Source of the DNA: Patescibacteria group bacterium
GTDB taxonomy: Bacteria > Patescibacteriota > JABMPQ01 > JBFLZX01
DNA length: 64,000 nt
Direction: 5' to 3'
Assembly: GCA_040756075.1 (NCBI GenBank)
Contig: JBFLZX010000001.1
Location: 28,787-92,786 of the forward strand
Positions 1 through 64,000 of this stretch are shown piece after piece (position 1 is the stretch's first letter; the number at the start of each line of letters is the position of its first letter). The translations under genes were made by a program, and so were the position numbers. A model generated the notes under the pieces. The model saw only the letters and a list, made by a program, of their open reading frames with translations, was not told the origin of the DNA and made no database searches.

Positions 1-1296
1 AATTTTTTTAATTTAGCAGTAAAACAGATTCCTAAGAAACAGTTTATCATATGGTTTGGAATTGCTGTTATATTAAGATTATTATTTTTATATATGACAA
101 TGCATGGGGATTTATTTTTTATTCATTATTATCCTACTAAATTAGGTACGCAAGGGCTTTTTGATATTTATCGGAATGGCAATATCTCAAGTTTGTATTA
201 TCCACCCTTAACTTATTTCTTTATAGGGGTTTATCAATTACTTTTAAAGCCATTTAATCCAGAGTTTTATAACTGGATACAAAATATATTTAATAGCAAT
301 GATGTAAGGGTATGGTTAGTTAATAATGGAATAAGCACAGAGTTTTTTAAGCAAATATTTTTTATGAAATTTCCTGTAGTAGTATTCGATTTCTTGTGTT
401 TTTTTATTATTTTAAGATATCTTGAAAAACCTTGTCATAAAAAAACAGCTTTAAAATTATGGAGCATTAATCCAGTTATTCTATACGGCATCTATGGATT
501 TGGGCAAATAGATATTATACCGGCGTTCTTCGCCGCATTATCTTTATTGTTAATCAAATATAAAAACGAATGGTGGGGATTTTTTTGTTTAAGCGTTGCT
601 GCTTTGTTTAAAACATTTACTATTTTTATGGTGTTGCCATTTTTAATATTATTAACTAGATCAAAAAGAGATTTATTCAAAAAATTACTCGCTTTGATTA
701 TTCCGTTTATTATTGTATTTTTGCCTTTACTTATTTCTAGCAAGGGCAGAATCCTGCGTTCAATATTTTTCGATCCGGGAGATAAATTAATTCCCTGTTT
801 AAGTTATTTGCAGAAATCGATTACCATTATATTTTTTATATTATTATATTATGTTGCTTATAAGCTAAGAGAAAAAGAAAAGAAAGACCATTGGTTATTA
901 ATGTTATCCATAGCTTCATTGATGATCCTCTATAGCGTAGCATTTATACCCGTGCATTATTTTATTTGGATTACTCCATTTCTAATTATAGCAGTTTCTG
1001 ATAATGCCTTTCCCTTAAAATTTTATTGGTTTCTTATTGTCCTTGTATTTTTGTATTGCTTGAATAGCCCAAACACAACTAGCAGGTTATTAATGCCTAT
1101 TAATCCTAAATTTTTTTATAAGTTTCCTAGCTTACCGGATTTAATGCATAAAATGCATATTAAATGGGGGGCTATTATGCTTTCAGCAAGATTGATTTTT
1201 ACGGCAAGCTGTGTATTAATTGCTTTTGAGCTTATTGGTGTAAGTTCAATCATAGAGCGTTTATTTAAAATTAAGATTGGATATAGGAAGGCATAA
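1..1296 (+). CDS. Polytopic membrane protein, putative GT-C-type glycosyltransferase (DUF2029/GT87-like). The 5' end lies outside the window.
   Basis: Frame 1 is open from nt 1 with no stop before the annotated ATG at 94, and the upstream translation (NFFNLAVKQIPKKQFIIWFGIAVILRLLFLY) is hydrophobic. The protein has many predicted TM helices and sits next to a GT2 polyprenyl-P-sugar synthase. Confidence 0.45.
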   Translation, partial: NFFNLAVKQIPKKQFIIWFGIAVILRLLFLYMTMHGDLFFIHYYPTKLGTQGLFDIYRNGNISSLYYPPLTYFFIGVYQLLLKPFNPEFYNWIQNIFNSNDVRVWLVNNGISTEFFKQIFFMKFPVVVFDFLCFFIILRYLEKPCHKKTALKLWSINPVILYGIYGFGQIDIIPAFFAALSLLLIKYKNEWWGFFCLSVAALFKTFTIFMVLPFLILLTRSKRDLFKKLLALIIPFIIVFLPLLISSKGRILRSIFFDPGDKLIPCLSYLQKSITIIFFILLYYVAYKLREKEKKDHWLLMLSIASLMILYSVAFIPVHYFIWITPFLIIAVSDNAFPLKFYWFLIVLVFLYCLNSPNTTSRLLMPINPKFFYKFPSLPDLMHKMHIKWGAIMLSARLIFTASCVLIAFELIGVSSIIERLFKIKIGYRKA

Positions 1297-2034
1297 TTGA
1301 AACTATCAGTTATAATACCAGCGCATAACGAAGAAGATTGTATTGAGAAAACTGTCTTAGACATTTCTGAAGAATTAAAAAAAGAATCTATAGATAACGA
1401 AATAATAATTGTTAATGATAACAGCACTGACAGAACCGTCTCTATAATTAATAATTTAGCTCAAGAGTATAATGATATACGGTTGATTAATAGGCAATCA
1501 CCTAATGGATTCGGCAGGGCAGTTAGAGAAGGGTTAGATAATGCAACCGGAGATGTGATTATAATTGCGATGGGTGATGCTTCAGATGACCCTAGGGATA
1601 TCGTGAAGTATTTTTATAAAATTGAAGAAGGGTATGACTGTGTTTTTGGTTCAAGGTTTATTAAGGGTGCCATGACAAGAGATTATCCATTTCATAAATT
1701 GATTGTAAACCGCATAGCAAATACTTTTTTAAGAATCCTTTTTTTAACCAAACACAATGATTTAACCAATGCTTTTAAAGCTTATCGTAGGGAAGTTATA
1801 GACGCTATTAAGCCGATAGAGTCGCTTTATTTTAATATTACCATAGAACTGCCCCTAAAAGCACTTATAAGAGGCTATTCTATTGCTTCAATGCCGACTA
1901 ATTGGTATGGCCGTAAAAGTGGTGTTTCTAAATTAAAAATTAAGGAAATGGGCAGGCGTTATCTTTATACAACACTATATCTATGGTTACAAAAGACACT
2001 TATTAGGGATGATATAAGGGATAAAAGGAAATGA
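1297..2034 (+). CDS. GT2 glycosyltransferase, DPM1/ArnC-like polyprenyl-phosphate sugar synthase
   Basis: The N-terminus SVIIPAHNEE, followed by IIVNDNSTD and a DxD-type region, matches GT-A fold dolichyl/undecaprenyl-phosphate sugar synthases. A TTG start sits right after the upstream stop. Confidence 0.7.
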   Translation: MKLSVIIPAHNEEDCIEKTVLDISEELKKESIDNEIIIVNDNSTDRTVSIINNLAQEYNDIRLINRQSPNGFGRAVREGLDNATGDVIIIAMGDASDDPRDIVKYFYKIEEGYDCVFGSRFIKGAMTRDYPFHKLIVNRIANTFLRILFLTKHNDLTNAFKAYRREVIDAIKPIESLYFNITIELPLKALIRGYSIASMPTNWYGRKSGVSKLKIKEMGRRYLYTTLYLWLQKTLIRDDIRDKRK

Positions 2035-3428
2035 ATATTATTTTGATTAGTCCTTCGCAAGGGGATGTCTATGGTAATTTCCAACCGCCTTATCATCCGT
2101 CGATAGGTTTAGGTTATATTGGGGCTGTTTTGGAGAAACAAGGCCATAATGTTAAGATAATTGATATTGATGCCGATAGAGTTACAGAAGACGATTTAAG
2201 AAAAAGAATAGTTGAGGATAAAATAGATTTAGCAGGGATTATGGTTTTAACTCCGATATTTACCAATGCCGTTAGAACCGCGCATATAATAAAAAAGTGT
2301 TCTAACGTTAAGGTTGTATTTGGGGGGATGCATCCGACTATTATGCCTCAAGATTGCTTAAAGATTAAAGATGTGGATTTTGTTGTCATTGGTGAAGGCG
2401 AGCAAACAATTTTAGAGCTAATTAATCAAATTCAGGGAGAGGGAAAATTCAAAGACGTTAAAGGCGTTGGTTTTAAGAAAGACGAAAAGATAATAATTAA
2501 TGAAAATAGACCATTAATCGAGGATTTGGATTCATTACCTTTTCCGGCAATGCGTTTATTTAATAATATAAAATATACTTACCCAGATGCAATTGCAAGC
2601 CCTACATTTCCGATTGTTACAAGTCGTGGTTGCCCTGGAACATGTACATATTGTAGTGCGCAAAGTATGTTTGGCAGGAAATTTCGGGCTCGTAGTGCGG
2701 TAAATATTGTTGATGAAATCGAAAAATTGATAAAAGATTTTGGTGTTAAAGAAGTGCATATTTGGGATGATAATTTCGTAACCATAAAAGAAAGAGTTTT
2801 AAAAGTAAGAGATGAAATTAAAAAGAGAGCTATTTTTATTAAGTTTGCATTTCCTAATGGGGTTAGGGCAGATTTTTTGGATAAAGATGTGATTGGCGCT
2901 CTCAAAGAAATGGGGACATATAGCATAGGCCTTGGTATAGAATCTGGGAATAACGAGATTTTACGGCGAGTCAAAAAAAACATTAATTTAGATAAGATTA
3001 AAGATGCTGTTAAGCTTGCGAAAAAATCAGGTATTGAGGTTTGGGGGTTTTTTATGCTTGGCCTTCCCGGTGAAACAAAAGAAACCGTCAATAATACTAT
3101 AAAATTTGCTATTGATTTAGATCCTGATATCGCAAAATTTCATATTTTAAAGCCTTATCCTGGGACGGAAGTTTTTAAAGAATTCGTAAATAATAATTTA
3201 ATTGATGATTTTGATTTTTCTCATTATGGTATCCATACAGGGCCGGTACACCATCTTAAAAATTTAGCCGTAGAGGAAATGAATTATCTTCAGCGCAGTG
3301 CTTATAAAAAATTTTATTTTAGGCCTTCAAAAATAATTAATCAAATAATAAGATTAAAATCATTCACTAGAATAAAATTAAATATAAAAGTATCGCTATC
3401 TGTTATAAGGAAAGCATTTACTAAATAA
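2031..3428 (+). CDS. B12-binding radical SAM protein (class B radical SAM, likely methyltransferase or related)
   Basis: The N-terminal roughly 150 aa are cobalamin-binding-like. The radical SAM cluster motif is RGCPGTCTYCS (CxxxCxxC). There is an ATGA overlap with the upstream gene. Confidence 0.75.
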   Translation: MNIILISPSQGDVYGNFQPPYHPSIGLGYIGAVLEKQGHNVKIIDIDADRVTEDDLRKRIVEDKIDLAGIMVLTPIFTNAVRTAHIIKKCSNVKVVFGGMHPTIMPQDCLKIKDVDFVVIGEGEQTILELINQIQGEGKFKDVKGVGFKKDEKIIINENRPLIEDLDSLPFPAMRLFNNIKYTYPDAIASPTFPIVTSRGCPGTCTYCSAQSMFGRKFRARSAVNIVDEIEKLIKDFGVKEVHIWDDNFVTIKERVLKVRDEIKKRAIFIKFAFPNGVRADFLDKDVIGALKEMGTYSIGLGIESGNNEILRRVKKNINLDKIKDAVKLAKKSGIEVWGFFMLGLPGETKETVNNTIKFAIDLDPDIAKFHILKPYPGTEVFKEFVNNNLIDDFDFSHYGIHTGPVHHLKNLAVEEMNYLQRSAYKKFYFRPSKIINQIIRLKSFTRIKLNIKVSLSVIRKAFTK

Positions 3429-3489
3429 TTATTTATTAATCCTAAACACTCAAGATGTCTCAAAATTTTTTATTCATGAATTTTAAAGA

Positions 3490-5007
3490 ATGAAGCATAC
3501 TTTGTTTACTTTATTTTTATTATCTTTTTTGCTTGGGATTATTCTGCGCATGATAAATATTAATCAACCATTGTTGGAATATAATACTACCAGGCAAGCC
3601 CAAACCGCTATGATAACTAAGAATTATATTTTAAATAAACTTCATTTTCTATATCCTACTATTTACAATTATTCCGGTGAGAATCCCACTTATCTTATGC
3701 AGGAATTCCCATTAATTACTGCCCCAGTTGCTATCGCATGCTATTTAATAGGTACAATCCCTGATTGGCTTCTTAGAATCCCTAGCTTGTTTTCATTTAT
3801 AATGGCTACATTTTTTTTATTTAAATTGGTAGAGTTATGTTGGAATCGAAAATTAGCAGTAATTTCTTCTTGTATTTTTATTTTTAGCCCTCTATCTATA
3901 TTAATGAGTAGAACATTTCAACCAGAAATGCCAATGCTATTTTTTCTATTAATGATGTTTTATTTCTTATGGAAATGGGTTTACGATGACAATATTTATA
4001 GTCTTATTTTTTCAGCATTCAGTTTTATGTGCTGCATTCTTTTGAAAGTAACGAATCTTTATTTGTTGCTGCCAATTTTATATATTATCTTATCAAATAA
4101 GAAAAAAATAGATTATCGCCTATTTAATTTTATAGTAGCATTTGTTTTAGCTTTTTTACCTGTATTATGGTGGTATGGTTATCATTGCCCAAAGATACGG
4201 CATTTGTTCCCAAACCAATACGATGTTATCTTTAATATTCACTATCAGACTATTTTTACTAAAAAATATCTAACAAATTTCAATTTTTATTTAAGGTTAA
4301 TTGTTCATATAATCAGGACAGCTTTTACTCCTTTAGTTTCCATTGCATTTATAATCGGATTATTAATTCGCCATAGGACTAATGAAGAAAAATTTTTATT
4401 TTTTTGGCTCTGCGGGGTAATTATTTTTTTATTATCTTTTCCTTCGGTAACGGACCATGAATATTATAAATTAGTAATTGTTCCAATAGGCGCCATATAC
4501 GCGGCTAGAGGCGTAAGTATCTTTTTAAATAAAAATAAAAATTATTTTAAATTAATAATAATTTATTCTAGTATACTTAGTTTTATTTTCTCGCTTAGGA
4601 TAGTTTATCCGTATCTTATAAATAAGGCTTATTTTAAAAATACCTTGCTTGCTGGAAAAGTTATAGATGAGGTTTCTTTTAAAGATGATTTGATTGTTGT
4701 TGCGCATGAATCCGGATCCGGATTGCTTTATTATTGCAATAGGAGAGGGTGGGGATTGAAAATTCCTGCGATTATTAAAAAGCGATGGGATAAAGATGCT
4801 TCTCCTAAGAATTTAGATGAACAAAACTATGAAGCTATTACTTCGTTAGAAGATTATCGGAGAAAAAATGCAAAGTATTTCGTTACCGTAGACATGGAAA
4901 AATTTAATAAAAGCCATAAATTCAGAGAATACATGTTTAAAAATTATATTTTATTAAGACATGAACCAGACAAATATATTATTTTTAAATTAGAAAACAA
5001 GAGGTAA
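3490..5007 (+). CDS. Polytopic membrane glycosyltransferase, GT-C fold (GT39/ArnT/PMT_2-like)
   Basis: About 11 TM helices with a C-terminal soluble domain. The architecture resembles 4-amino-4-deoxy-L-arabinose transferase and protein O-mannosyltransferase family members. Confidence 0.5.
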   Translation: MKHTLFTLFLLSFLLGIILRMININQPLLEYNTTRQAQTAMITKNYILNKLHFLYPTIYNYSGENPTYLMQEFPLITAPVAIACYLIGTIPDWLLRIPSLFSFIMATFFLFKLVELCWNRKLAVISSCIFIFSPLSILMSRTFQPEMPMLFFLLMMFYFLWKWVYDDNIYSLIFSAFSFMCCILLKVTNLYLLLPILYIILSNKKKIDYRLFNFIVAFVLAFLPVLWWYGYHCPKIRHLFPNQYDVIFNIHYQTIFTKKYLTNFNFYLRLIVHIIRTAFTPLVSIAFIIGLLIRHRTNEEKFLFFWLCGVIIFLLSFPSVTDHEYYKLVIVPIGAIYAARGVSIFLNKNKNYFKLIIIYSSILSFIFSLRIVYPYLINKAYFKNTLLAGKVIDEVSFKDDLIVVAHESGSGLLYYCNRRGWGLKIPAIIKKRWDKDASPKNLDEQNYEAITSLEDYRRKNAKYFVTVDMEKFNKSHKFREYMFKNYILLRHEPDKYIIFKLENKR

Positions 5008-5702
5008 TGATGCAATTAAGCCAAGAGAAGATGGTTGGGCGTTTAGGTAGATTCTTAGGCGATGTGCAGAGAATCCAGAACGAGGATATAATTAAACAAA
5101 TATCAGGAAATACTGTATTAGATGTTGGTTGTGGATATGGCGTTTTAACTAAACAATTAGCAGAAAAAAATAAATATAAATTGTTATTAGGAATAGACAG
5201 TGATACATTAGCTATAAATATAGCACGCAATTTATATAAAGATATTAATTTTAAAGAAATTGATTTATATGCTTTAAACCCTCTGCATAATAAATTTGAA
5301 ACCATAATTTTTCGTGAATCAATTCATCATTTAAATGTTGATAAGGCTTTATCATTCGCTAGGCAGATTTGTTCTAAAGAAATTATAATATTTGATCCAA
5401 ATCCTAATTTACTTCTTCGAATGTGTAGATATTTAATTGCGCACAAGGATGATGAAGCAAGATTAGGCGATATTATCACAAGTTGTAATAAAAACCATCT
5501 TAAAATAGAATCTATCAAATACAACAGTATCCTGGCCTTTCCTTTTTCTGGTGGATTTGTCGGAAAAGAAATATGCCCAAATATAAAATTTATTAAGAGG
5601 TCGATAATTTACATAGATTCTGTTTTAGTTAAATTCTTGCATTTCTTAGGTATTGATAGATATTTTTGTTGGCGTTATTTGGTAAAAATAAATATAAATT
5701 AA
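5007..5702 (+). CDS. Class I SAM-dependent methyltransferase
   Basis: SAM-binding motif I is VLDVGCGYGVLT, with an acidic residue at the end of beta2 (GIDSD). Confidence 0.7.
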   Translation: MMQLSQEKMVGRLGRFLGDVQRIQNEDIIKQISGNTVLDVGCGYGVLTKQLAEKNKYKLLLGIDSDTLAINIARNLYKDINFKEIDLYALNPLHNKFETIIFRESIHHLNVDKALSFARQICSKEIIIFDPNPNLLLRMCRYLIAHKDDEARLGDIITSCNKNHLKIESIKYNSILAFPFSGGFVGKEICPNIKFIKRSIIYIDSVLVKFLHFLGIDRYFCWRYLVKININ

Positions 5703-5716
5703 TATTAATAATTAAA

Positions 5717-6424
5717 ATGTTTTTATCGGTTATTATTCCCGCATTTAATGAAGAAAAGAGGCTAAAACAAACTCTTTGCCAGATATCTTCGTATCTTATT
5801 AAGGGGTATAAAGATTCTGAAATTATTATTGTTGACGATGGCTCTAATGATTGTACGTTTTTAGTAGCGAATGACTTTTCAAAAAATACCAATTTACCAG
5901 TAAAGGTATTAAAAAATATTATAAATTTAGGCAAAGGCGCTAGTGTGAAAAATGGTATACTTGTATCTTGCGGCGATTTTGTTCTTTTTAGTGACGCGGA
6001 TTTATCTACGCCGATAGAAGAATTGGATAAGCTCTTTAACTATATTAAAGATGGTTACGATATCATTATAGGTTCGCGAAGCAAAGAGGATTCAAGCGTT
6101 CAAATACATCAACCATGGTACAGGAAAAAGATGGGGAAAATATTTAATTTTCTTGTAAAATTATTATTATTAAAAGACTTTAATGATACTCAATGTGGTT
6201 TTAAGCTTTTTAAAGGTGATATCGCCAGGAAAATTGCAGGACTTATGCATATTAATGGATTTTGCTTTGATGTAGAGATGCTATATATTGCCCAAAAAAA
6301 TGGTTATAAAATAAAAGAGATAGGTGTTATTTGGAAAAATTCATCCCAAAGTAGAGTAGAAATATTAAATAGTTCATTAAGGATGTTTTTTGATCTTCTT
6401 AAGATTAAAAGGTTGCATATATAA
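5717..6424 (+). CDS. GT2 glycosyltransferase, CsbB/DPM1-like polyprenyl-phosphate sugar synthase
   Basis: MFLSVIIPAFNEEKRL, IIIVDDGSNDCT and DADLSTP motifs. I prefer the internal ATG at 5717 over the track start at 5666, because 5717 gives the canonical N-terminus and removes the overlap. Confidence 0.7.
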   Translation: MFLSVIIPAFNEEKRLKQTLCQISSYLIKGYKDSEIIIVDDGSNDCTFLVANDFSKNTNLPVKVLKNIINLGKGASVKNGILVSCGDFVLFSDADLSTPIEELDKLFNYIKDGYDIIIGSRSKEDSSVQIHQPWYRKKMGKIFNFLVKLLLLKDFNDTQCGFKLFKGDIARKIAGLMHINGFCFDVEMLYIAQKNGYKIKEIGVIWKNSSQSRVEILNSSLRMFFDLLKIKRLHI

Positions 6425-6467
6425 TAAATTTTTTATTACCCACAGACAGAAATTTTTAATTAATAAA

Positions 6468-9837: not shown

Positions 9838-9888
9838 TATTCTATAAAATATTAATAATTTTAATCAGCATAGTTATTAGGAGGCACA

Positions 9889-53505: not shown

Positions 53506-53506
53506 A

Positions 53507-54130
53507 ATGATTATAGCTTTTTGTGGAATCGATGGTTCCGGTAAAAGCACTTATGTTGGTTATACTATGGATTATTTAAATGCCAAAGGTTTAAAAACTA
53601 AATCTATACATATTATCAGAGATTCATTTTATCATTTTGTCCTTCATAACTATATTGGCAGGATTTCTTCTGTATCCCAAAAACGATTAGAGGATAATTT
53701 AAGAAACCCAAAAAATAAGATTTATCCCTTTATTGTAAAATTTTTAAAAAAAATATTATTATTTATGAATCTCATATATTTTAATTTAAAGCACCTATCC
53801 TATAAAGGCAATTTAAACAATAATATAGTTTGCGACAGGTATTTTTACGACGATTTAGTACAGATGAAATACTTAAAATTAGCTAAGGACAAATTCTTTT
53901 ATTTTTATGAAAAACTTATTATAAAGCCCGACATTATTTTTTTTGTAAAGGCAGATCCGCAAACTGCTTATTCAAGAAAATACGAATATAATTTAGATTA
54001 TTTTTTAAATAAAAATCGGTTATATTCCAATTTATTTAGCCATATTTTACACCTGGAATTAAGCCACCCGGACATAGAAAATAATAAGCAGTATATTTAT
54101 AGACAAATTGACGAAGTTATTCAAAGATAA
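53507..54130 (+). CDS. Thymidylate-kinase-family P-loop nucleotide/nucleoside-monophosphate kinase
   Basis: IIAFCGIDGSGKST P-loop (Tmk GxDGxGKST) and VCDRYFYD, which matches the Tmk DRY motif. Confidence 0.55.
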   Translation: MIIAFCGIDGSGKSTYVGYTMDYLNAKGLKTKSIHIIRDSFYHFVLHNYIGRISSVSQKRLEDNLRNPKNKIYPFIVKFLKKILLFMNLIYFNLKHLSYKGNLNNNIVCDRYFYDDLVQMKYLKLAKDKFFYFYEKLIIKPDIIFFVKADPQTAYSRKYEYNLDYFLNKNRLYSNLFSHILHLELSHPDIENNKQYIYRQIDEVIQR

Positions 54131-56632: not shown

Positions 56633-56637
56633 ATGCA

Positions 56638-57585
56638 ATGGATATACATATAATTATATTAAATTATAACGGAATGGCTCTTTTAAAAAAACATCTACCA
56701 TCTGTAATCATGGCTCATAATCGTTGTTCATATAAAAGCCGCATAACTATTTTAGATAATGGGAGTACAGATGGGAGTTTGTTATATGTAAGAGAAAATT
56801 TTCCCGAAGTGAACATAAGTATTTCTCCAAAAAATTTAGTTTTAATTTCATACAACGCATTTATTCAACAAATAAAAGAAAAAGTTATATTATTGTTAAA
56901 TAATGATGTTAGGTTGTCGGAAGATTGTATTGATTTAATGATGCCACATTTTTTAGATAGTTCTGTTTTTTTTGTTTCTCCGCTTGTTTTGAATAAAGAT
57001 GGAAATGACTTAAACGGAGGCTGTATGGATTTTTCATTTAAATATGGATTATTTCAGAATAAATTCAAGCAGCCGACAGTTAATAAATATTCCTTATTTA
57101 TTGGGAGTAGCGTTGCTTTTGATAGGGATAAATTTCTGGCTTTAAGTGGATACGATTCTATTTATTTACCTGGCACTTACGAAGATGTAGATATATGCTA
57201 TAGGGCTTGGCAAAGGGGATGGTTTGGCATCTGTGAAAAAAAAGCAATCGCTTATCATGACGATTCGGCTTCGTTTAATAAGGAATACGGCAATAAAAAA
57301 CGCCAAATAATATCAGCTAGGAATGCTTATATATTTGTTTGGAAAAACATACACAGCCCCACGATACTCTGTACAAATATTATTTGTTATCCATTAGTAA
57401 TAATATTTAATATGATGCGTTTACGGTTTGATTTGGTTTTAGGTTACCTACAGGCCATTTTTTTATTACCTGCTATTTTTAAAAGAAGGATATTTTGTAA
57501 TAGGCAGATTAAAAGGACGGATTCAGAGATTAAACAACTTTTTAATAGCACATCAGGAGATAAAAATGTATATACTTGGAATTAA
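56638..57585 (+). CDS. GT2-family glycosyltransferase
   Basis: IIILNYNGMALLKKHLPSV, ILDNGSTDGS and a later YEDVDI block (DxD-like). Confidence 0.65.
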   Translation: MDIHIIILNYNGMALLKKHLPSVIMAHNRCSYKSRITILDNGSTDGSLLYVRENFPEVNISISPKNLVLISYNAFIQQIKEKVILLLNNDVRLSEDCIDLMMPHFLDSSVFFVSPLVLNKDGNDLNGGCMDFSFKYGLFQNKFKQPTVNKYSLFIGSSVAFDRDKFLALSGYDSIYLPGTYEDVDICYRAWQRGWFGICEKKAIAYHDDSASFNKEYGNKKRQIISARNAYIFVWKNIHSPTILCTNIICYPLVIIFNMMRLRFDLVLGYLQAIFLLPAIFKRRIFCNRQIKRTDSEIKQLFNSTSGDKNVYTWN

Positions 57586-59242
57586 TTGCGGACACGATGC
57601 AACAGCAGCCCTTATAAAAAATGAAAAAATTATAGCTGTTGTTCAGGAAGAAAGAAAAACGCGCATCAAACATCAAAATGGATTTCCCTTCTTAGCCATA
57701 AAAGAAGTATTATATATCGGTGGAATCGAAGCTAAGGATATAGATTATATTGCTTGGGCAGGAAATGATAGGCGGCTTCAATCAATAAAAGAGTTGTTTT
57801 GGGCAATAGGAGGAGATAAGTTTTATTCATATGGAGGAATAACTAAAAGGATTAAAACGGCTATAGCCGAAAATACAAAAGGAATATGGAATTTCAACGG
57901 CAATCTTAAGAAATTAAAATTAAACAAAAAGAAATCTTTCTTTTTTGAACATCATCTTTGTCATGCGTCATCGGCATACCGTAATTCGGGTTTTCAGAAA
58001 GCCCTAATTTTGACAATCGATGGCGTAGGAGATAATATTTCCGCTACAGTAAATATTGGAGATAAAGGTCTGATTAAAAGAATAGCAAAGACTAGCCCGA
58101 AACACAGTATCGGGTTGCTTTATCAAGCAGTAACCGAGGCATTAGGGTTTGTTCCTGTCGAAGGCGAATATAAAACTATGGGCCTTGCAGCTTATGGCGA
58201 TAAAATTAAACTCTACAACTATTTTAATAATATAATAAGCTATGAGAATTTAAGGTTTAAATCAAAATTTATATGGGAATCTAATTGGCAATTTCCTGCT
58301 CCTAGCATACGCCAACATATTTTATTCAAGAATTTACTCAAACAGTACAAAAAAGAAGATATAGCAGCGAGTTGTCAGGCTGTTTGCGAAGATGTAATTT
58401 ATAGATTTGTGAATGATGTTGTTAAGAAAACAGATATTCATAATATATGTGTTGCCGGCGGAGTTTTTCTTAATGTTAAAGCAAACAAAATAATTAGGGA
58501 AAAAGTCCCTCTAGATTCTTTATATATTCATCCGGATGCTGGCGATGGAGGTTTAGCTTTAGGGGCGGCTTTAGAATTATATTTTAACTTAACGGGCTCT
58601 ATGCCTAGAGACAAATTAGATAACACTTATTTTGGCAGGAGTTATGCTAATGAAGAAATAAAGAAAGAATTAGATAGAAATAATCTAAAGGTATATTATT
58701 TTGAAGATATTGAAAAAAAAGCAGCAGAATTATTAAAATCAGGAAAAGTCATAGGCTGGTTTCAGGGGAGAATGGAAATGGGCCCACGCGCCTTAGGTAA
58801 TAGGTCTGTTTTAGCAGATCCTCGTAATCCATCGGTGAAAGAAAAAATCAACAAACATCTTAAAAAACGCGATTGGTTTGTGCCATTTGCACCCTCAATT
58901 TTAGAGGAAGATAGCAATCTTTATATTAAGGAATTTAATGGGTATGCTCCTTTTATGATTATGGCGTTTGATGCTGACGTTACTAAAAAAGAGTTAATAC
59001 CAGCAGTTGTGCATGTTGATAATACGTTAAGGCCGCAGATCGTAAGAAAAGAATTCAATCTTTCGTACTGGAAGTTGATAAAGTCGTTTAAAGAGCTTAC
59101 TGGCATTGGCGTTGTATTGAATACCTCATTTAATAGGCATGGTTTACCGATGGTAGAATCTCCCAAGGATGCAGTGGAGCACTTATTGGACCGTAATATT
59201 GATACCCTAGTTATTGGGAATTATATCGTTGACAGGCCTTAA
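57566..59242 (+). CDS. Carbamoyltransferase (NodU/CmcH family)
   Basis: YILGINCGHDATAALIKNEKIIAVVQEERKTRIKH matches the family's N-terminal signature. The C-terminal domain has the usual FPFAPS and NTSFN blocks. Confidence 0.75.
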   Translation: MYILGINCGHDATAALIKNEKIIAVVQEERKTRIKHQNGFPFLAIKEVLYIGGIEAKDIDYIAWAGNDRRLQSIKELFWAIGGDKFYSYGGITKRIKTAIAENTKGIWNFNGNLKKLKLNKKKSFFFEHHLCHASSAYRNSGFQKALILTIDGVGDNISATVNIGDKGLIKRIAKTSPKHSIGLLYQAVTEALGFVPVEGEYKTMGLAAYGDKIKLYNYFNNIISYENLRFKSKFIWESNWQFPAPSIRQHILFKNLLKQYKKEDIAASCQAVCEDVIYRFVNDVVKKTDIHNICVAGGVFLNVKANKIIREKVPLDSLYIHPDAGDGGLALGAALELYFNLTGSMPRDKLDNTYFGRSYANEEIKKELDRNNLKVYYFEDIEKKAAELLKSGKVIGWFQGRMEMGPRALGNRSVLADPRNPSVKEKINKHLKKRDWFVPFAPSILEEDSNLYIKEFNGYAPFMIMAFDADVTKKELIPAVVHVDNTLRPQIVRKEFNLSYWKLIKSFKELTGIGVVLNTSFNRHGLPMVESPKDAVEHLLDRNIDTLVIGNYIVDRP

Positions 59243-59259
59243 AAATAAAGCATGTATTA

Positions 59260-60267
59260 ATGAAAAGAAAAAGTATTTTAAAAAGATTTGGTTCACAAGA
59301 ATTAGCAGTATGTGAGCAAGTTGCAGAAAAGCCATTTATAGAGCTGCAAGGCAATAATATTATGCCTCTACCAAAAGACTTTTTTTGTCTTAGAATTGAT
59401 GCAGATGAGCATAATGAAGAATTATTCGATGAATTTTTGAGTGTCTTTGATAACTTTAAAGATGCCATAACAATTTTTTTTAATGCACATAATTTTTCTT
59501 CTCTAAAAGATAAAATTATTAAATGCGCTAATTCAGGATTAGATGTTCAATCTCATGGGTATTACCACTATACTTATAATGACTACAGAAGCAATCGATA
59601 TAATATAAATAAAGCAAAGCGGTTTTTCGAAGAGTTAGGAATTACGACTATTGGATTTGCTGCTCCTATGGGGAAATGGAATGAGAGTTTAATGTATGCC
59701 TTGGAAGATGAGGGCTATGAATATTCCTCGGACTTTAGTTATGATTATTTAGGCTTTCCGACTTATCCTAATTTAGGAAATAGAGTATCTAGTATCCTTG
59801 AAATTCCAATTTTTCCTGTTGCGCCAGAGTTATTTTTTCAAAATAATAATTTTAACTCAAGGAGAATCTTAGAATTTTATGAAAATGCTATTAAAGAAAT
59901 AAGTTCTTGTGGGCTACCGGTAATAATTTATGCTCATACAAGTAATTATAATGAAATACCTAAACTTTTAAACAGCATATTAGAATTTGCTATTCTAAAA
60001 AATAAACTAACTCCTATTAATCTAACAAATTTTTATAATTTATGGAAAAAAATTCATCCGCAGAAAATACAGATGACCAGTAGGGCGGATAAAATAAAAA
60101 TACCAAATTCAGATCTTTTAGGAGAAACGATAAACTTAGAGATAAATAGTTTTTTAAAAAACTATTTTAAAAACTTGATTGATTTTGAACGGATTACTCC
60201 CTTAGATGAAATTCAATACGGATGGTTTAAAAAAACGATAAACAAAGTATTAAGAAATTTTTTATAA
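59260..60267 (+). CDS. Putative polysaccharide deacetylase-like (NodB homology) protein
   Basis: LRIDADEH (a TFDDG-like motif 1), QSHGYYH (an H-x3-H motif 2) and FAAPMGKWN (an RPPYG-like motif). The match is weak. Confidence 0.4.
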   Translation: MKRKSILKRFGSQELAVCEQVAEKPFIELQGNNIMPLPKDFFCLRIDADEHNEELFDEFLSVFDNFKDAITIFFNAHNFSSLKDKIIKCANSGLDVQSHGYYHYTYNDYRSNRYNINKAKRFFEELGITTIGFAAPMGKWNESLMYALEDEGYEYSSDFSYDYLGFPTYPNLGNRVSSILEIPIFPVAPELFFQNNNFNSRRILEFYENAIKEISSCGLPVIIYAHTSNYNEIPKLLNSILEFAILKNKLTPINLTNFYNLWKKIHPQKIQMTSRADKIKIPNSDLLGETINLEINSFLKNYFKNLIDFERITPLDEIQYGWFKKTINKVLRNFL

Positions 60268-60286
60268 TATTATAAACGGAGGAGTT

Positions 60287-61252
60287 ATGCCTAATTTTTA
60301 TAATAAAAAAAGAGTTTTAATAACCGGTGCTGATGGTTTTATGGGCTCTCATCTTGTAGAGCGGTTACTTGCTGAAGGCGCAAAAGTATCGGTTTATGTG
60401 AGGGGAAATTCTGTCTCTGGGACAACCCAATATAACCTTAAGAATATAAAGCACTTAGAGAGGTATTTGTCTGAAATAATCACTGGTAATATTGCTACTT
60501 TAGATGCAAAAGATCTTGTAATTAAAAATAAGCCAGAAGTTATATTTCATCTTGCGGCTGATGCGTATGTGCCAAACTCATTTGACCATCCGATTGAGGT
60601 AATGGAAACAAATGTTATTGGTACATTGAATATGTTATGCGCTGTTAAAGAAGACAAGAAAATTAAACGCATTGTTTGTACTTCATCTAGTGAAATTTAT
60701 GGCATGACTTTAGGTGGTTCGATTAATGAAGAACATCCACTTTATCCATCAAGCCCCTATGCAGCAAGTAAGGTTGCTGCAGATAGATATGCCTACGCAT
60801 ATTGGAATACCTATAAGCTACCTATTGCGATTATCCGGCCATTTAATACATATGGCCCACGCCACACCTACGATGTAATACCAAAATTTATTGATTTAGC
60901 GCTAAAGAATAGAGCCATAACTGTGCATGGGAGCGGTAGTCAGTCTCGTGATTTTACATATGTCGATGATATGATAGATGCCTTTTTGATTATGGGCAGC
61001 CACGATAAAGCAATTGGCAAGGCAGTAAATTTTGGCACAGGACGCGCGGTAACTATAAATTATATTGCAAAAAAAATAAAGGACATAGCTAAATCAAACT
61101 CAAGAATAGTTCATACAGAACAAAGGCTTGCAGAGGTGCCTAAGCTTTTGTGTAATTATTCATTGGCTAATAAATTATTTGGATGGAAGCCAAAAATTTT
61201 TATTGATGAAGGGTTAAGGAGAAATGTCGAATGGGCAAAACAAAGCCAATAG
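60287..61252 (+). CDS. NAD-dependent sugar-nucleotide epimerase/dehydratase (UDP-glucuronate decarboxylase / 4-epimerase-like extended SDR)
   Basis: [18 protein letters not shown] and YAASK. GGAGG RBS. Confidence 0.7.
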
Positions 61253-62787
61253 AAAAATATTTCCGTGATAAAAATGCTTTAATTTCTAAAACCGCCAAAA
61301 TAGGTGCAGGCACTAAAATTTGGGCGTTTGCGCAAATTGGAGATAATGCGCGAATTGGCAATAATTGTGTTATAGGAAATGGTGTTTATATCGATAGAAA
61401 TGTTGTAGTTGGCAATAATGTAAAAATTCATAATAGGGCATTGCTTTACGATGGCTTAGTTGTTGAAGATAACTGCTTTATTGGCCCTGGTGCATGTTTT
61501 ACAAATGATAAGCTGCCAAGACACAATACAACACGTAATTTAGCAGATAAAACTTGGCGAGTGAGAGAAGGGGCAAGCATTGGTGCAAATGCAACAGTGC
61601 TGCCAGATATAACAATTGGGAAAAATGCTGTTATTGGTGCGGGCTCAGTAGTTACAAAAGATGTGCCTGATAATGCGACTGTTTATGGAAATCCCTCTAA
61701 AATAATTAAAATCCATAAAAATAACCAAGTAAGTTCAGGAGAAAGTTTAAAATTAGTTTGCAATTGGATTATAAATTCTGGCCTGCAGGCAAAAAATGGT
61801 GGTTTTTACGCGTGGCTTGACCTAAATGCAAATGCATATTCGTATATTTATTCAGAAATAACCGGCTATGGTATTACGACTCTGCTTTTTTTGAATGAAC
61901 TAAAAAAAGCAGAATTAGCCGCTGATTGGATTATTAAAAAATCAATACAGCCTTGTGGGGGGGTTAGAACAGGTAAGGGTGAGTTTGATAATTTATTTAC
62001 CTTTGATACTGGAATGGTCTTGTATGGCTTAATAAATTTATTTAAAGCCGCTAAAAAGCAAGAATATCTTAATATCTCAAAAAAAATTGCTGATTTTTTA
62101 TTAGCGAATCAGAGAAGTAATGGTTCACTTGCCCCGATTTATTCGTTAAAAACAAATAAAACAATTGAAACACTTGATAAATGGTCAACTCAAAGTGGTA
62201 CATATCATGCAAAAGTAGCTTTAGGGTTAGTCGATCTATTTAGAATTACAAAAAACGATATTTACAAAAATGCGGCAATAAAGCTCTGTAAATTTACCTT
62301 AACTTTGCAAGATAAATCAGGCAGGTTCATCACAAATAAAAAAGATAATACCACTCATATTCATCCGCATTCTTATGCGGCAGAAGGTTTACTATACACC
62401 GGGGCAATTTTAAAAATTAAAGAATTTGTCGCTGCGGCAAAAAAATCTGTTGAGTGGTCATTTAAAAATTTATCCGGTTATGGTATAAATGAGCTTTATA
62501 ATCCGTTTTCGAATACTTTTAATGATTTTCAAAGAAGCGATATCCTCGCGCAAGTATTAAGATTGGGAATTATCTTTTCTTTAGATTCAAAAAAAATAGA
62601 AGAATTGGCATCTTTATTACTTGCTTATCAATATAATGGCCAAAATAAGCAGAAAGGCGGCTTTTTTTATTCAAAGAATGACTTACACTTAAATTCTTGG
62701 TGCTCAATGTTTGCTTTACAAGCATTAGCGCTATACCAAAATAAAAAATTAATCGGCAAAAATGGCAAAGTTGAACTGTTTATCTGA
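61231..62787 (+). CDS. Hexapeptide-repeat (LbH) acyl/acetyltransferase fused to a C-terminal alpha/alpha-toroid domain that carries GGF-type repeats
   Basis: N-terminal roughly 170 aa: [54 protein letters not shown], which is FdtC/WxcM-like. C-terminal roughly 340 aa: recurring NGGFYAW, CGGVRT, SGRF and KGGFFYS repeats like those of prenyltransferase/terpene-cyclase beta repeats. Confidence 0.55.
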
Positions 62788-63898
62788 AAAAAAACTAGGG
62801 TTTGTTTTTGGCACGCGGCCGGAGATTATAAAACTAAGCCCCATAATTAAACTCTGTCAAAAAATAAAAATTCCATTCTTCTGTATTCATACAGGCCAAC
62901 ATTACTCTCATGAGATGGATAAAATATTTTTTAAAGACTTGAATTTACCGCTTCCAAAATATAGGTTGCAAATAAAATCAAGCGCGCCATTTAAGCAAGG
63001 AGAGCATACTGGCAGGATGTTGATTGAACTTGAGAAAATTCTATTAAAAGAAATGCCTTATTGTATATTAATCCAAGGCGATACAAATACGGTTTTAGCA
63101 GCTGCTCTGACTGCAGAGAAAATATCAACCACTGAAAGCTATACAGGTTTTCATATAAGAATAGCCCATGTAGAAGCCGGCCTAAGAAGCTATGACAGAA
63201 GCATGCCCGAAGAAACAAATCGGTTTATTACTGACCATCTTTCAGACTTTTTATTTACGCCTACCAATAATGAAAAAGAAATTTTATTAAGAGAAGGTGT
63301 TGATAAATCAAAAATATTCACTGTTGGCAACACAATTGTTGACTCAGTGAAGAATAATATTAAATCGGCTTTATTAAAAAGCGAAATTTTAAAAACTTTG
63401 GGGCTAAAACGACATAAATATTTATTAACAACTATTCACCGTCAAGAAAATGTAGATTCAAAGGAAATATTTAGCAATATTTTATCCGGGTTAGAAAAAG
63501 TTAATGATAGTTTGAAGCTGCCTATGATTTTTCCAATTCACCCTCGTACAGCAAAGATGATGGATAAATTCAATTTGAGCTTGCCAAAGAGCATAACACC
63601 AATAGCGCCAGTTGGATTTATGGATTTTCTTTTACTTGAAAGTAACGCAGCATTAATCTTAACTGATTCGGGCGGTATTCAGGAAGAGGCGTGTATTTTA
63701 AAAGTACCATGTGTTACGTTAAGAAGTAATACTGAACGGCCAAAAACTGTAAAAGTTAAGGCAAATATGATTTCATATAACAAACCAGATAGAATATTAA
63801 GCTATGCATTAAAAATGATAAACGCTAGAAGAAAATGGAAGAATCCATTTGGCGATGGCAAAACAAGCCAGCGTATAATCGAGGCGATATTGAATTAG
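62762..63898 (+). CDS. UDP-N-acetylglucosamine 2-epimerase (WecB/NeuC family)
   Basis: [13 protein letters not shown] and HVEAGLRS motifs. Confidence 0.8.
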
Positions 63899-64000
63899 AT
63901 GAAAGTATTGTTTTATTCCTATCCTCAAGCATTTCAAAATCCTGGCGGCGGAGAAGTAATGCTTTTAAAAACAAAAGAAGCATTAGAAAAACAAGGTGTT
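63899..64000 (+). CDS. Glycosyltransferase, N-terminus only (GT4-like). The 3' end lies outside the window.
   Basis: An ATG at 63899 follows the upstream stop. MKVLFYSYPQAFQNPGGGEVMLLKTKEALEKQGV is a typical GT-B N-terminal Gly-rich loop. Confidence 0.35.
   Translation, partial: MKVLFYSYPQAFQNPGGGEVMLLKTKEALEKQGV

Follow-up and report, generated by a model that had tools for sequence, protein, structure and literature searches.

The 64 kb stretch of DNA analysed here (the window), a slice of a 110 kb source contig, belongs to a larger cell-envelope glycan supercluster that appears to be old and conserved in its lineage rather than a recently acquired island, a reading to which we assign a probability of roughly 0.8. 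The type of locus is already known; its size is unusual. According to the ORF listing and the junction analysis, the window holds 58 genes (56 complete and two truncated by its edges), all on the plus strand, to which all gene coordinates below refer. For 53 of the 56 complete genes, the Pfam or NCBIfam family fits a role in sugar or glycan metabolism.

Layout and transcription units

The complete genes comprise 55 large ORFs (g1 to g55) and one ORF of 76 aa (21402-21632), and coding density is ~99% across the window. On the minus strand, the ten ORFs of 100 aa or more each lie nested in a plus-strand gene and gave no match in a Pfam search. A sequence-only reading of this DNA had described about 57 co-directional genes, spaced mostly by less than 30 nt, with one gap above 100 nt and a continuation past both edges, all of which our counts bear out. 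Among the 55 junctions, 26 overlap and 25 lie at 0-30 nt, three fall between 31 and 100 nt (37, 51 and 61 nt), and one exceeds 100 nt (171 nt, 16994-17164). In the mechanical ORF list, 21386-21573 looks like another gap, of 188 nt. This interval is occupied by a conserved HTH_17 gene, and ATG 21649 is the most likely start of the gene downstream of it, g17, which leaves the count of a single long gap correct. Seven ATGA overlaps had also been proposed; there are indeed seven 4-nt overlaps at those positions, six of them ATGA (2031, 12066, 15320, 28057, 31048 and 43049), whereas the one at 24716 is GTGA. On the left, an ORF is open to position 93 (1-93; 3' end with a hydrophobic tail and no Pfam match), and on the right the 5' end of a GT4-like gene (63899-64000) abuts the preceding stop codon; in the related locus L044 a GT4 gene likewise follows WecB. 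The locus thus continues in both directions.

GC skew is positive over the entire window, and the co-directional run is therefore partly a matter of strand bias, in the lineage or the replichore, and not of a single transcript. In related loci, the fraction of same-strand genes is 21/21 (L044), 14/14 (L045), 19/20 (L130) and 18/18 (L131).

The 171-nt gap before g14 contains a sigma-70-like site, TTGACA-16-(TG)TATACT (17084-17111; 11/12 match, extended -10 TG), with A/U-rich hairpins upstream of it; the fold z-score there is -2.7, without a U-tract. At the equivalent place L130 carries a minus-strand gene, which together with the 11/12 site makes a transcription-unit boundary credible here, and most likely transcription starts at least at this gap. 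Tight spacing and the 26 overlaps point to a small number of long units with translational coupling. Promoter- and terminator-like sites are as frequent window-wide as in shuffles of this AT-rich DNA, so that the scans speak neither for nor against internal promoters. Two operons, as the sequence-only reading had it, are plausible. That there are exactly two giant ones, g1-g13 reaching beyond the left edge and g14 running at least 47 kb to beyond the right edge, we consider unlikely: the single long gap with its promoter-like site, the frequency of overlapping junctions, the conservation of the boundary in L130 and the absence of an intrinsic-terminator-like site from every intergenic spacer of the window would all fit, but promoter-like hexamer pairs occur at shuffle frequency (~100 per 20 kb), three more spacers of 37-61 nt exist, an HTH regulator gene lies within the second unit, relatives gain or lose genes inside the units (e.g. 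g20 and a minus-strand rSAM gene), and transcripts longer than 45 kb would be an exception.

Gene content and proposed glycan pathways

The annotation strongly supports the earlier proposal of glycan biosynthesis, and at least five recognisable biochemical modules likewise strongly support the description of an elaborate, multi-component glycoconjugate. Among the genes are those of a pseudaminic-acid-like pathway, of a CMP-ulosonic-acid branch of the KdsB type and of PAPS synthesis, with four Arn- or YfhO-like GT2/GT-C pairs. They also encode a Wzx flippase, five B12-radical-SAM enzymes and transferases for carbamoyl, acetyl and methyl groups. PseC, PseH, KdsB, WecB, ATP sulfurylase and APS kinase score above the curated cutoffs of their NCBIfam models; the PseB, PseF, PseG, PseI and ArnB models score below theirs, and many assignments are at family level only. 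Some family names are of a housekeeping type (pyruvate kinase barrel, RtcB, dTMP-kinase-like, phosphoglycerate-dehydrogenase-like, ATP sulfurylase), but a chance co-directional run of unrelated housekeeping genes is extremely improbable and effectively refuted by annotation and synteny, as sugar-nucleotide, glycosyltransferase, flippase and glycan-tailoring families account for more than 50 of the 56 genes and the 'housekeeping-like' genes keep their place in the glycan loci of relatives.

The order and products of the pathways given here are predictions. Cytoplasmic enzymes would first supply activated sugars. Of these, g17-g26 would make a pseudaminic-acid-type nonulosonic acid. They encode a CBS-domain and SDR sugar dehydratase/epimerase in the PseB position, though not a PseB equivalog (g17, 21649-23055), a cupin sugar 3,5-epimerase/isomerase (g18, 23076-23531; RmlC/FdtA-like, PF00908, PF05523), the PseC aminotransferase (g19, 23535-24719; TIGR03588, 501 bits vs cutoff 423.5), a PseI-like NeuB-family nonulosonic acid synthase (g21, 26202-27269; PF03102, E 1.4e-75; TIGR03586, 318.5 bits vs cutoff 340), a CMP-sugar (acylneuraminate-type) cytidylyltransferase (g22, 27269-28060; PF02348, E 1.2e-32), a PseG-like UDP-sugar hydrolase fused to a PseH N-acetyltransferase (g24, 29516-31051; TIGR03585, 93.8 bits vs cutoff 93.1; TIGR03590, 126 vs 153.6), a WbqC-family protein (g25, 31048-31785; PF08889, E 2.5e-71) and a PIG-L family de-N-acetylase (g26, 31796-32488; PF02585), with two B12-radical SAM genes, g20 and g23, among them.

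A second CMP-activated ulosonic acid may come from g31-g38, centred on an HpcH/HpaI class II pyruvate aldolase (g32, 38421-39176; PF03328, E 1.2e-34) and a KdsB-type CMP-ulosonic acid synthetase (g33, 39186-39968; NF009905, 292 bits vs cutoff 255). The other members are a divergent cytidylyltransferase (g31, 37646-38395; PF02348, E 6e-12), the radical SAM gene g34, a D-2-hydroxyacid/phosphoglycerate dehydrogenase-like gene (g35, 41399-42391; start probably ATG 41480), a cyclase/arylformamidase-family hydrolase (g36, 42384-43052; PF04199), a HAD phosphatase (g37, 43049-43702; PF13419) and an SDR sugar epimerase/reductase (g38, 43709-44614; PF01370). A 4-amino-4,6-dideoxy-hexose is the predicted product of g9 (9889-12069), a fusion of an SDR 4,6-dehydratase/epimerase and a DegT-type aminotransferase (PF01370 and PF01041; ArnB/PseC models below cutoff) whose two halves have their paralogues in g17 and g19 (41% and 40% identity, respectively), and of the GNAT N-acetyltransferase g12 (14556-15323; PF00583). 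Finally, ManNAc or 6-deoxy-amino sugars could arise from g53-g55: a LegB-like NDP-sugar 4,6-dehydratase (60287-61252; ~80% identical in relatives), a hexapeptide sugar N-acetyltransferase fused to an (alpha/alpha)6 GH88/GH76-like domain (61231-62787; two separate genes in relatives) and the WecB non-hydrolysing UDP-GlcNAc 2-epimerase (62762-63898; TIGR00236, 363 bits vs cutoff 210).

These sugars would then be tailored by the five B12-radical SAM enzymes, g3 (2031-3428; PF02310 and PF04055; best NCBIfam match HpnJ/BchE, below cutoff), g20 (24716-26185; GTG start overlapping the preceding stop; absent from L130), g23 (28057-29508; L130 homologue 83% identical), g34 (39973-41478) and g44 (49428-50879), together with four SAM methyltransferases. 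Genes annotated as SAM methyltransferases include g5 (5007-5702; PF13649 and related families) and g40 (45946-46728), and g43 (48742-49425; PF08241) is annotated as a methyltransferase. Acetyl and carbamoyl transferases and de-N-acetylases may contribute as well. Enzymes of these and similar kinds are encoded by g8 (8713-9837; SGNH/GDSL acyl-esterase or O-acyltransferase type with an N-terminal TM segment; PF13472; L130 homologue 56% identical), g51 (57566-59242; NodU/CmcH-type carbamoyltransferase, PF16861 and PF02543) and g52 (59260-60267; polysaccharide deacetylase in an ArnD-like position, PF01522), the L044 version of the last being fused to a formyltransferase. Sulfation would draw on PAPS made in situ by g14 and g15. 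The latter is a sulfate adenylyltransferase (ATP sulfurylase; 19321-20421; NF003166, 409 bits vs cutoff 387), and g14 (17165-19318) joins a sulfatase-fold domain to an APS kinase; in the sulfatase fold Thr54 takes the formylglycine position and the C/S-x-P-x-R motif is absent, which together with the fusion makes g14 a candidate for new glycan chemistry. Downstream lies g16, a pyruvate-kinase barrel-only protein (20408-21385; PF00224, E 5e-57; syntenic in L130, 66% identical). A short-chain dehydrogenase (g28, 34345-35127; PF13561) and an aldo/keto reductase (g29, 35154-36098; PF00248) are also present.

Glycans or polyprenyl-phosphate sugars would be built by GT4 enzymes, g42 (47682-48755; PF00534) and g45 (50889-52022), and by GT2 enzymes: g2, a candidate polyprenyl-phosphate sugar synthase (1297-2034; PF00535, E 1.6e-31), g6 (5666-6424, start possibly ATG 5717; PF00535, E 1.2e-27), the ArnC/DPM1-like g11 (13783-14553; PF00535, E 6.9e-33), g41 (46741-47682; two C-terminal TM helices, GtrB/ArnC architecture), which is the best-conserved glycosyltransferase (71-73% identity), and g50 (56638-57585). 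A 612-aa GT-B-like protein (g27, 32492-34330), with weak matches to Epimerase_2, Capsule_synth, Glyphos_transf, BFO_1060 and TIGR04396, is a candidate CMP-ulosonic acid transferase, and g39 (44595-45953; PF04464, E 1.5e-6) is a TagB/F-like (Glyphos_transf) transferase. The products would cross the membrane via the Wzx-type flippase g30 (36070-37608; PF13440, PF01943; 12 TM) and the MprF-flippase-like LPG_synthase_TM membrane protein g48 (54130-55071; PF03706). Transfer to extracytoplasmic acceptors could fall to six polytopic GT-C enzymes with 8-13 TM segments each: g1 (94-1296; GT87-like, PF09594, E 7.5e-6; 8 TM-like segments), g4 (3490-5007; PMT_2/ArnT-like, PF13231, E 3.9e-12; 11 TM), g7 (6390-8732, start possibly ATG 6468; YfhO-like, PF09586, E 2.5e-11; 12 TM), g10 (12066-13769; PMT_2/ArnT-like, PF13231, PF02366; 12 TM), g13 (15320-16993; PMT_2, PF13231, PF02366; 11 TM) and g49 (55064-56632; PMT family; 13 TM). 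Each lies beside a small GT2 gene, an arrangement known from the Arn, Gtr and CsbB/YfhO systems. Within the 64 kb we found no gene for an initiating phosphoglycosyltransferase, a Wzy polymerase, a WaaL ligase, an oligosaccharyltransferase or an acceptor protein, and thus none that would single out the acceptor (S-layer, pilin, flagellin, LPS or capsule). The locus may serve several separate glycoconjugates.

Conservation of the locus

Gene order is conserved in related Omnitrophota-type contigs at 35-85% amino-acid identity. L130 matches g8-g25 at 50-84% identity, with the small HTH gene among them, and g33-g55 recur in L045, L044 and L003 at 33-80%. The retention of order over tens of kb in distinct contigs at such identities indicates old vertical descent or ancient shared ancestry, and paralogues within the locus are at most 41% identical, so that no recent in-situ duplication has taken place.

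The sequence-only reading had called the locus an island; in the sense of horizontal acquisition, our results do not support the term. A recent import, as a strain-specific surface-antigen cassette, would suit the frequent hypervariability of surface-glycan loci and a preprint's description of Omnitrophota polysaccharide cassettes as cargo that is variable or mobile (10.64898/2026.06.07.730766). It would also suit the origin of the sequence, a MAG labelled Patescibacteria by NCBI while the closest homologues of the locus are in Omnitrophota MAGs, as well as the presence of an excisionase-family HTH gene. We nevertheless regard it as improbable, since GC3 is uniform over all 56 genes (0.255 +/- 0.027), the 64 kb contain no tRNA, Rfam RNA, IS element, integrase or flanking repeat, and several contigs keep the gene order. 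The HTH gene (21402-21632; HTH_17, excisionase/MerR-type; PF12728, E 1.9e-12; AAGGAG Shine-Dalgarno) is itself conserved in position, its L130 counterpart being 76% identical, and its small DNA-binding product is a candidate regulator of the locus. The source organism is an uncultured, low-GC bacterium with a small genome.

An RtcB-kinase pair among glycan genes

Within the supercluster, g46 (52015-53505) encodes a full-length RtcB-family ligase (Pfam RtcB, E 2.4e-83) of a glycan-locus-specific clade, and g47 (53507-54130) a P-loop kinase of the dTMP-kinase fold that is its obligate downstream partner. The kinase directly follows the clade RtcB in all eight independent loci, from bacteria and archaea and all amid glycan genes, whereas among 80 canonical RtcB loci it occurs in none, and any homologue of the window's glycan genes in two. 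The pair seems to have moved from RNA repair into glycan chemistry. Like g14, it exceeds what such a locus ordinarily contains and is a second candidate for new chemistry of this kind.

Alternatively, g46 and g47 could form a cassette for RNA repair or defence that is only carried along in variable glycan regions and plays no part in glycan synthesis. Elsewhere, P-loop kinases are found alongside RNA-repair ligases, and g46 is a full-length RtcB that retains the GMP-accepting nucleotidyl His (CHGxGR), the Cys and three His metal ligands. We find this doubtful, because the pair lies on the same strand, spaced by 0-25 nt or overlapping, among glycosyltransferase genes in 8/8 loci, including archaeal-type contigs with otherwise different neighbours, and because the kinase is missing from the canonical loci. 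Beside the clade pair we saw no RtcA, RtcR, archease or PrfH, and a PADLOC defence search with g46 gave no match. The dTMP-kinase fold of g47, which is not that of polynucleotide kinases, also speaks against such a cassette, as do the systematic active-site changes across the g46 clade (D-I-N-C to N-A/P-N-C, HxGYG to HxK.., HTGSR to HSDSR and HN to HD); g46 itself has Asn in place of the equivalent of Asp95.

An RtcB-family ligase and its partner kinase

In the window, an uncultured lineage carries a glycan supercluster of exceptional size and density, with every gene on one strand. Its most interesting content is a glycan-locus-specific module made up of g46, an RtcB-family ligase (52015-53505), and g47, a dTMP-kinase-fold kinase (53507-54130), followed by g14 (17165-19318), in which a sulfatase-fold domain with a Thr nucleophile is fused to an APS kinase. 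What hosts and phages meet on uncultured, often episymbiotic bacteria with small genomes is determined mainly by large surface-glycan loci, and here the coding investment in such a glycan exceeds 64 kb of a contig of 110 kb. The RtcB-kinase pair and the g14 fusion are two enzyme recruitments with a clean comparative-genomic handle and possibly new carbohydrate chemistry. If confirmed, they would add a new route by which glycans acquire phosphodiester, pyrophosphate or sulfate linkages, and the RtcB family would no longer be confined to nucleic acids.

Compared with the canonical RtcB of P. horikoshii, E. coli and human (PMC10630183), g46 belongs to the same fold family and is full length (PF01139, E 2.4e-83), with ~28-30% identity to solved RtcBs. 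We aligned it to 4dwr and 2epg, the ligand columns being invariant across 34 sequences, and found that it keeps the nucleotidyl His (His404, in CHGxGR), Cys98, His203, His234 and His329 (P. horikoshii numbering), as well as Glu, Ser and Lys positions that are invariant among RtcB relatives. The roles of these five numbered residues have been described, and Asp95 has been assigned as a Mn2 ligand touching the GTP gamma-phosphate (PMC10630183). Canonical loci have Asp at this last position (D-I-N-C), whereas g46 and 21 of the 22 other aligned clade sequences have Asn and the remaining one has Leu. Three further motifs are remodelled across the clade, HxGYG to HxK.., HTGSR to HSDSR and HN to HD. 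The clade is small: when 1.84 billion representatives were searched exhaustively with a profile, ~7-9 clusters scored above 480 bits.

A gene for a ~205-aa P-loop protein, the kinase, directly follows the RtcB gene in all eight independent clade loci that could be read (the window and the related loci L003, L044, L045, L046, L047, L048 and L132), with a spacing within 25 nt. The neighbours in these loci are genes for GT4, GT2 and GT-C glycosyltransferases, Wzx or MprF-like flippases, and UDP-glucose dehydrogenase or heptosyltransferase. One of the loci, L046, looks archaeal, carrying genes for ribosomal protein L37e and LSM, and another, L048, has as neighbours an operon for ribosomal proteins and a gene for an aEF1A-type elongation factor. 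As a control we used 80 loci with canonical, D-I-N-C-type RtcBs of 25-30% identity, which came from a metagenome scan with the RtcB-clade alignment whose patterns were too general. The kinase was present in none of the 80, and only two had a gene homologous to any of the glycan genes in the window. Genes for RtcA, RtcR, archease or PrfH were found neither beside g46 nor in the seven related loci. In contrast to canonical RtcB, g46 and its relatives always stand ahead of a dTMP-kinase-fold gene in glycan loci and never beside RtcA, RtcR or archease. The association of the RtcB-kinase pair with glycan loci is a direct observation, whereas the chemistry is conjecture.

A role of the pair in defence or RNA repair was considered and set aside, as PADLOC returned no match for g46 and only P-loop-level matches for g47. 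The structural model of g47 (pLDDT 87.6) has a dTMP-kinase fold, with TM scores of 0.6-0.7 to many TMPKs, and the protein retains the P-loop together with a D-R-Y motif that is invariant; on these grounds the model suggests that the acceptor is of the phosphomonoester type. We infer a recruitment of the g46 clade into glycan biosynthesis, in which the His-NMP intermediate of g46 would activate a phosphomonoester as X-O-P-P-N for attack by a hydroxyl. The substrate would be a phosphorylated sugar, polyol or lipid-linked intermediate rather than RNA, and the outcome could be phosphodiester links in the surface glycan or an NDP-activated donor. Literature searches on RtcB in polysaccharide or glycan loci returned nothing relevant. 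To the overall proposal, that g46 and g47 form an unrecognised glycan module of Omnitrophota-type bacteria and some archaea, with a g14 sulfotransferase as a second case, we would give roughly three chances in ten.

The g14 fusion and sulfate activation

Sulfate activation is encoded by g14, g15 and g16 (module B, 17165-21385, plus strand). g14 ends in an APS kinase domain (TIGR00455, 154.6 bits vs a cutoff of 138.7) and g15 is an ATP sulfurylase (NF003166, 409 bits vs 387), while no classical PAPS sulfotransferase (Sulfotransfer_1/2/3) was matched with Pfam at E <= 1e-3 in any of the 56 proteins. The N-terminal 540 residues of g14 match Pfam Sulfatase, and the model of this domain (pLDDT 88) has its best matches among S1 sulfatases and phosphonate monoester hydrolases (Foldseek E ~1e-18, TM 0.5-0.57), with which it shares the fold and the metal-binding Asp13 and Asp368-His369. 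In contrast to these formylglycine enzymes, g14 has Thr54 at its nucleophile position (...PTQFGFPSIFTS...), nearly invariant in 20 homologues, and is fused to an APS kinase beside an ATP sulfurylase gene. The C/S-x-P/A-x-R formylglycine motif is absent, and on this ground we rejected an ordinary sulfatase. The domain also has a ~130-residue insertion, predicted to be helical, and is without a signal peptide.

Genes of the g14 type were found in the window, in L130 (10001-12175), a related contig that matches g8-g25, and in L131 (10001-11632), another related contig. The fusion itself is rare, being limited to g14 and one homologue of 59% identity. A stand-alone homologue lies in an Omnitrophota-type glycan locus, directly after genes for PEP mutase, phosphonopyruvate decarboxylase and Fe-ADH. 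Taken together, Thr54, the fusion to APS kinase, the neighbouring ATP sulfurylase gene and the phosphonate genes beside the homologue point to a domain that is used as a transferase rather than a sulfatase. Since PAPS would be made here with no classical sulfotransferase at hand and a homologue is linked to phosphonate genes, we suspect that the family transfers anionic groups to glycans, sulfate in the window and phosphonate in the other locus. The Thr-nucleophile domain might therefore be a new type of sulfotransferase, or belong to a new family of sulfo- or phosphono-group transferases. Literature searches on sulfatase-like sulfotransferases yielded nothing relevant.

The third gene of this group, g16 (20408-21385), encodes a 325-aa protein that consists of the pyruvate-kinase barrel only, with no C-terminal regulatory domain. 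It is also present in L130 (13259-14233; 66% identity), immediately after the ATP sulfurylase gene, and might serve ATP regeneration or PEP handling.

Gene layout, transcription and origin of the locus

In the six-frame ORF list, large ORFs form an unbroken series on the plus strand. The window holds 56 complete genes, g1 to g55 plus a small HTH_17 gene, and is cut within a gene at each edge. The sequence-only reading had described about 57 genes, all co-directional, mostly less than 30 nt apart and running past both edges, and each of these points holds. Among the 55 junctions, 26 are overlaps, 25 have 0-30 nt, three have 37, 51 and 61 nt, and one has 171 nt (16994-17164), the latter being the sole spacer above 100 nt. 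A mechanical ORF list gave a second such gap at 21386-21573, which we dismissed as the region is occupied by a 76-aa ORF of the HTH_17 (excisionase/MerR-type) family (21402-21632; Pfam E 1.9e-12) with an AAGGAG ribosome-binding site; with this gene included, both the earlier gene count and the earlier statement of a single large gap are right. Seven stop/start overlaps had been reported as ATGA, and all seven 4-nt overlaps lie where they had been placed, although the one at 24716 reads GTGA.

The HTH_17 gene occurs in the same place in L130 with 76% identity, between the pyruvate kinase-like and CBS-SDR genes, and its product is a candidate in-locus regulator. The gene after it, g17, most likely starts at the ATG at 21649. 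ORFs of 100 aa or more on the minus strand were not counted as genes, because all are nested within plus-strand genes and none has a Pfam match. The GC content is ~31%, GC skew is positive along the entire window, and Shine-Dalgarno-like 4-mers precede 26 of the 56 starts, compared to 14% at random positions.

With their shared direction and their short or overlapping junctions, the genes have an operon-like layout. Counts of promoter and terminator consensus sequences over 60 kb equal those of dinucleotide shuffles, so that such scans are uninformative in this AT-rich DNA, and we used the promoter scan for one site in the large gap only. This site, TTGACA-16-TATACT with an extended -10 TG (17084-17111), is the best plus-strand site of the region. 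The upstream half of the gap (16985-17090) can form two A/U-rich hairpins (z = -2.7, better than 199 of 200 shuffles). They were not called as an intrinsic terminator, having neither a G+C stem nor a U-tract, and might instead mark a site of processing or of unconventional termination. The equivalent position in L130 is taken by an opposite-strand gene for a B12-radical SAM enzyme. The promoter-like site, the folding and the opposite-strand gene make a transcription-unit boundary before g14 credible; the division into exactly two operons, as had been proposed, is unproven.

Protein searches placed the nearest relatives of the locus mostly in Omnitrophota MAGs, and also in Scalindua and Margulisiibacteriota. 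L130 has g8-g25 in order at 50-84% identity, except for g12 (34%), and L045, L044 and L003 have g33-g55 in synteny at 33-80%. Within the window GC3 is uniform (0.255 +/- 0.027), searches for tRNAs, Rfam RNAs, IS elements and meaningful repeats were negative, and paralogues are old (<=41% identity). Recent in-situ duplication of the five B12-radical SAM and six GT-C genes was likewise rejected, as the former are only 23-31% identical to one another and a BLASTP comparison among the latter gave no match at E <= 1e-5. Local changes are seen in comparison with the relatives, such as the lack of g20 in L130, the split of g54 into two genes and the exchange of a formyltransferase-deacetylase fusion in L044 for a carbamoyltransferase and a separate deacetylase. 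In view of the synteny, the uniform GC3, the lack of mobility marks and the age of the paralogues, the locus has the marks of a supercluster conserved in its lineage, in which genes are gained and lost locally, rather than those of a recent import. Within the 64 kb, the term 'island' in the sense of horizontal acquisition is not supported.

Protein searches gave matches of 100% identity in the source MAG, g47 being AB1465_00410. This MAG is labelled Patescibacteria by NCBI, whereas the homologues and syntenic loci are of Omnitrophota type, and the GC content of the window (31%) compares with 35-44% in the Omnitrophota-type contigs with the closest homologues. This mismatch could stem from mis-binning, mislabelling or an old transfer between phyla. 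Literature searches on pseudaminic acid in Patescibacteria returned nothing relevant.

Sugar pathways and their known counterparts

Pfam and NCBIfam assign nearly every product to sugar or glycan metabolism, which bears out the glycan-biosynthesis function put forward in the sequence-only reading, and the further claim of an elaborate locus is upheld by the five modules that we read, all on the plus strand. Module A (1-16993) consists of periplasmic-type glycosylation units in which a small GT2 (g2, g6, g11) adjoins a polytopic GT-C enzyme with 8-12 predicted TM segments (g1, GT87-like; g7, YfhO; g4, g10 and g13, PMT_2). The PMT_2 assignments are above the Pfam cutoffs, at family level only, and these three proteins have 11-12 TM segments and each adjoin a GT2 (g2, g11). 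The module also encodes a GNAT, a methyltransferase, an SGNH protein, a B12-radical SAM enzyme and an SDR-aminotransferase fusion, g9, the halves of which are paralogues of g17 (41% identity) and g19 (40%).

Module C (21402-37608) encodes a pseudaminic-acid-like nonulosonic acid pathway. Above their NCBIfam equivalog cutoffs are the aminotransferase PseC (g19, TIGR03588, 501 bits vs 423.5) and, marginally, the N-acetyltransferase PseH (g24 C-terminal domain, TIGR03585, 93.8 vs 93.1). The PseG hydrolase model scores 126 bits on the g24 N-terminal domain (TIGR03590, cutoff 153.6) and the PseI synthase model 318.5 on g21 (TIGR03586, cutoff 340.3), being the best match there, ahead of NeuB. Equivalogs of the inverting 4,6-dehydratase PseB and the cytidylyltransferase PseF were not found at their positions (g17, 49 bits vs 407.8; g22, 26.5 vs 205.7), which are held by a CBS-SDR (g17) with a cupin (g18) and by a CTP_transf_3 protein, respectively. 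The product is therefore Pse-like but not demonstrably Pse. Two B12-radical SAM genes are interleaved in this block, and the module further contains WbqC, a PIG-L deacetylase, two reductases, a Wzx flippase and g27 (612 aa; weak matches only), a candidate ulosonic-acid transferase.

A second branch to a CMP-activated acid sugar is formed by module D (37646-46728), with a KdsB-type synthetase (above cutoff), an HpcH-type pyruvate aldolase, a second cytidylyltransferase, a 2-hydroxyacid dehydrogenase, a HAD phosphatase, a cyclase-family hydrolase, an SDR, a B12-radical SAM enzyme, a TagF-like transferase and a methyltransferase. In g32-g33 (38421-39968), the partner of the KdsB-type CMP-ulosonic acid synthetase is an HpcH/HpaI class II pyruvate aldolase, not a PEP-dependent synthase of the KdsA/NeuB type, which suggests that a 2-keto-3-deoxy acid sugar is made by an unconventional, pyruvate-dependent route. 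GC3 is higher in this gene pair than anywhere else in the window.

Module E (46741-64000) combines assembly genes with an Arn-like unit. It begins with g41 (GT2, GtrB/ArnC architecture), two GT4s, a methyltransferase and a B12-radical SAM enzyme, continues with the RtcB-kinase pair, g48 (MprF-flippase-like), g49 (GT-C) and g50 (GT2), and ends with a carbamoyltransferase, a polysaccharide deacetylase, a LegB-like dehydratase, g54, WecB (above cutoff) and the start of a GT4. An initiating phosphoglycosyltransferase, Wzy, WaaL, an oligosaccharyltransferase and a candidate acceptor protein are all absent from the window.

By analogy, the locus appears to work like the large O-antigen and glycoprotein glycan loci, such as Leptospira rfb and those of Campylobacter flagellin glycosylation, and it combines genes of this type with several units of the Arn/Gtr/CsbB-YfhO type. 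The Leptospira rfb locus is very large, with a near one-strand layout. The window has six periplasmic GT-C/GT2 pairs, five B12-radical SAM genes, in-locus PAPS synthesis and the RtcB-kinase pair, and we know of none of these from rfb loci. It resembles rfb, the LPS antigen locus (PMC10958091), in its dozens of tightly packed, almost entirely co-directional genes, its nonulosonic-acid and aminosugar pathways, its many glycosyltransferases and its Wzx flippase. It differs in coming from another phylum and in being without Wzy, WaaL and an initiating transferase.

In Campylobacter and Helicobacter, flagellin O-glycosylation uses the PseB-C-H-G-I-F pathway for pseudaminic acid. The window likewise has PseC and PseH equivalogs and PseG-, PseI- and PseF-like enzymes in g19-g24, and in both cases a nonulosonic acid core is surrounded by many tailoring genes. 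In contrast to those loci, however, the window has the CBS-SDR and cupin at the PseB position and the interleaved B12-radical SAM genes, has no Maf transferase or flagellin gene, and keeps all genes on one strand.

Other counterparts are the Arn (PmrF) pathway arnBCADTEF and two three-component glycosylation systems, GtrABC and CsbB/YfhO. Parts of the window would follow the same logic, in that an aminosugar nucleotide (g9) is passed to polyprenyl phosphate by a GT2 (g2, g6, g11, g41, g50), then deacylated (g52), flipped (g48) and transferred outside the cytoplasm by a GT-C enzyme (g1, g4, g7, g10, g13, g49). In contrast to Arn, the window has no ArnA decarboxylase/formyltransferase, with no Formyl_trans_N domain found anywhere in it by Pfam and the carbamoyltransferase g51 standing there instead, the ArnB model is below cutoff on the g9 C-terminal domain (NF008658, 428 bits vs 631), and the flippase is MprF-like, not ArnE/F or GtrA. 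As several defining equivalogs thus score below their cutoffs, membership of the locus in the canonical Pse or Arn pathway is not demonstrable from these profiles.

In g51-g52 (57566-60267), a NodU/CmcH-type carbamoyltransferase gene is followed by a separate deacetylase gene, and the equivalent place in L044 (15536-17257) even has an ArnA-type formyltransferase domain fused to an ArnD-like deacetylase. This hints at an Arn-like unit with carbamoyl chemistry in place of formyl.

The B12-binding radical SAM enzymes (2031-3428, 24716-26185, 28057-29508, 39973-41478 and 49428-50879) also differ in presence among relatives, L130 having the extra opposite-strand one in addition to lacking g20, and look like interchangeable tailoring modules, for example for C-methylation of sugars.

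Finally, g54 (61231-62787) joins a hexapeptide N-acetyltransferase and an (alpha/alpha)6 GH88/GH76-like domain in one ORF. In relatives it corresponds to two neighbouring genes that overlap by 4 nt (L044 18201-19906; L003 8351-9984), and the second domain of g54 contains a G7 homopolymer (61957-61963), which is unusual for DNA of 31% GC.
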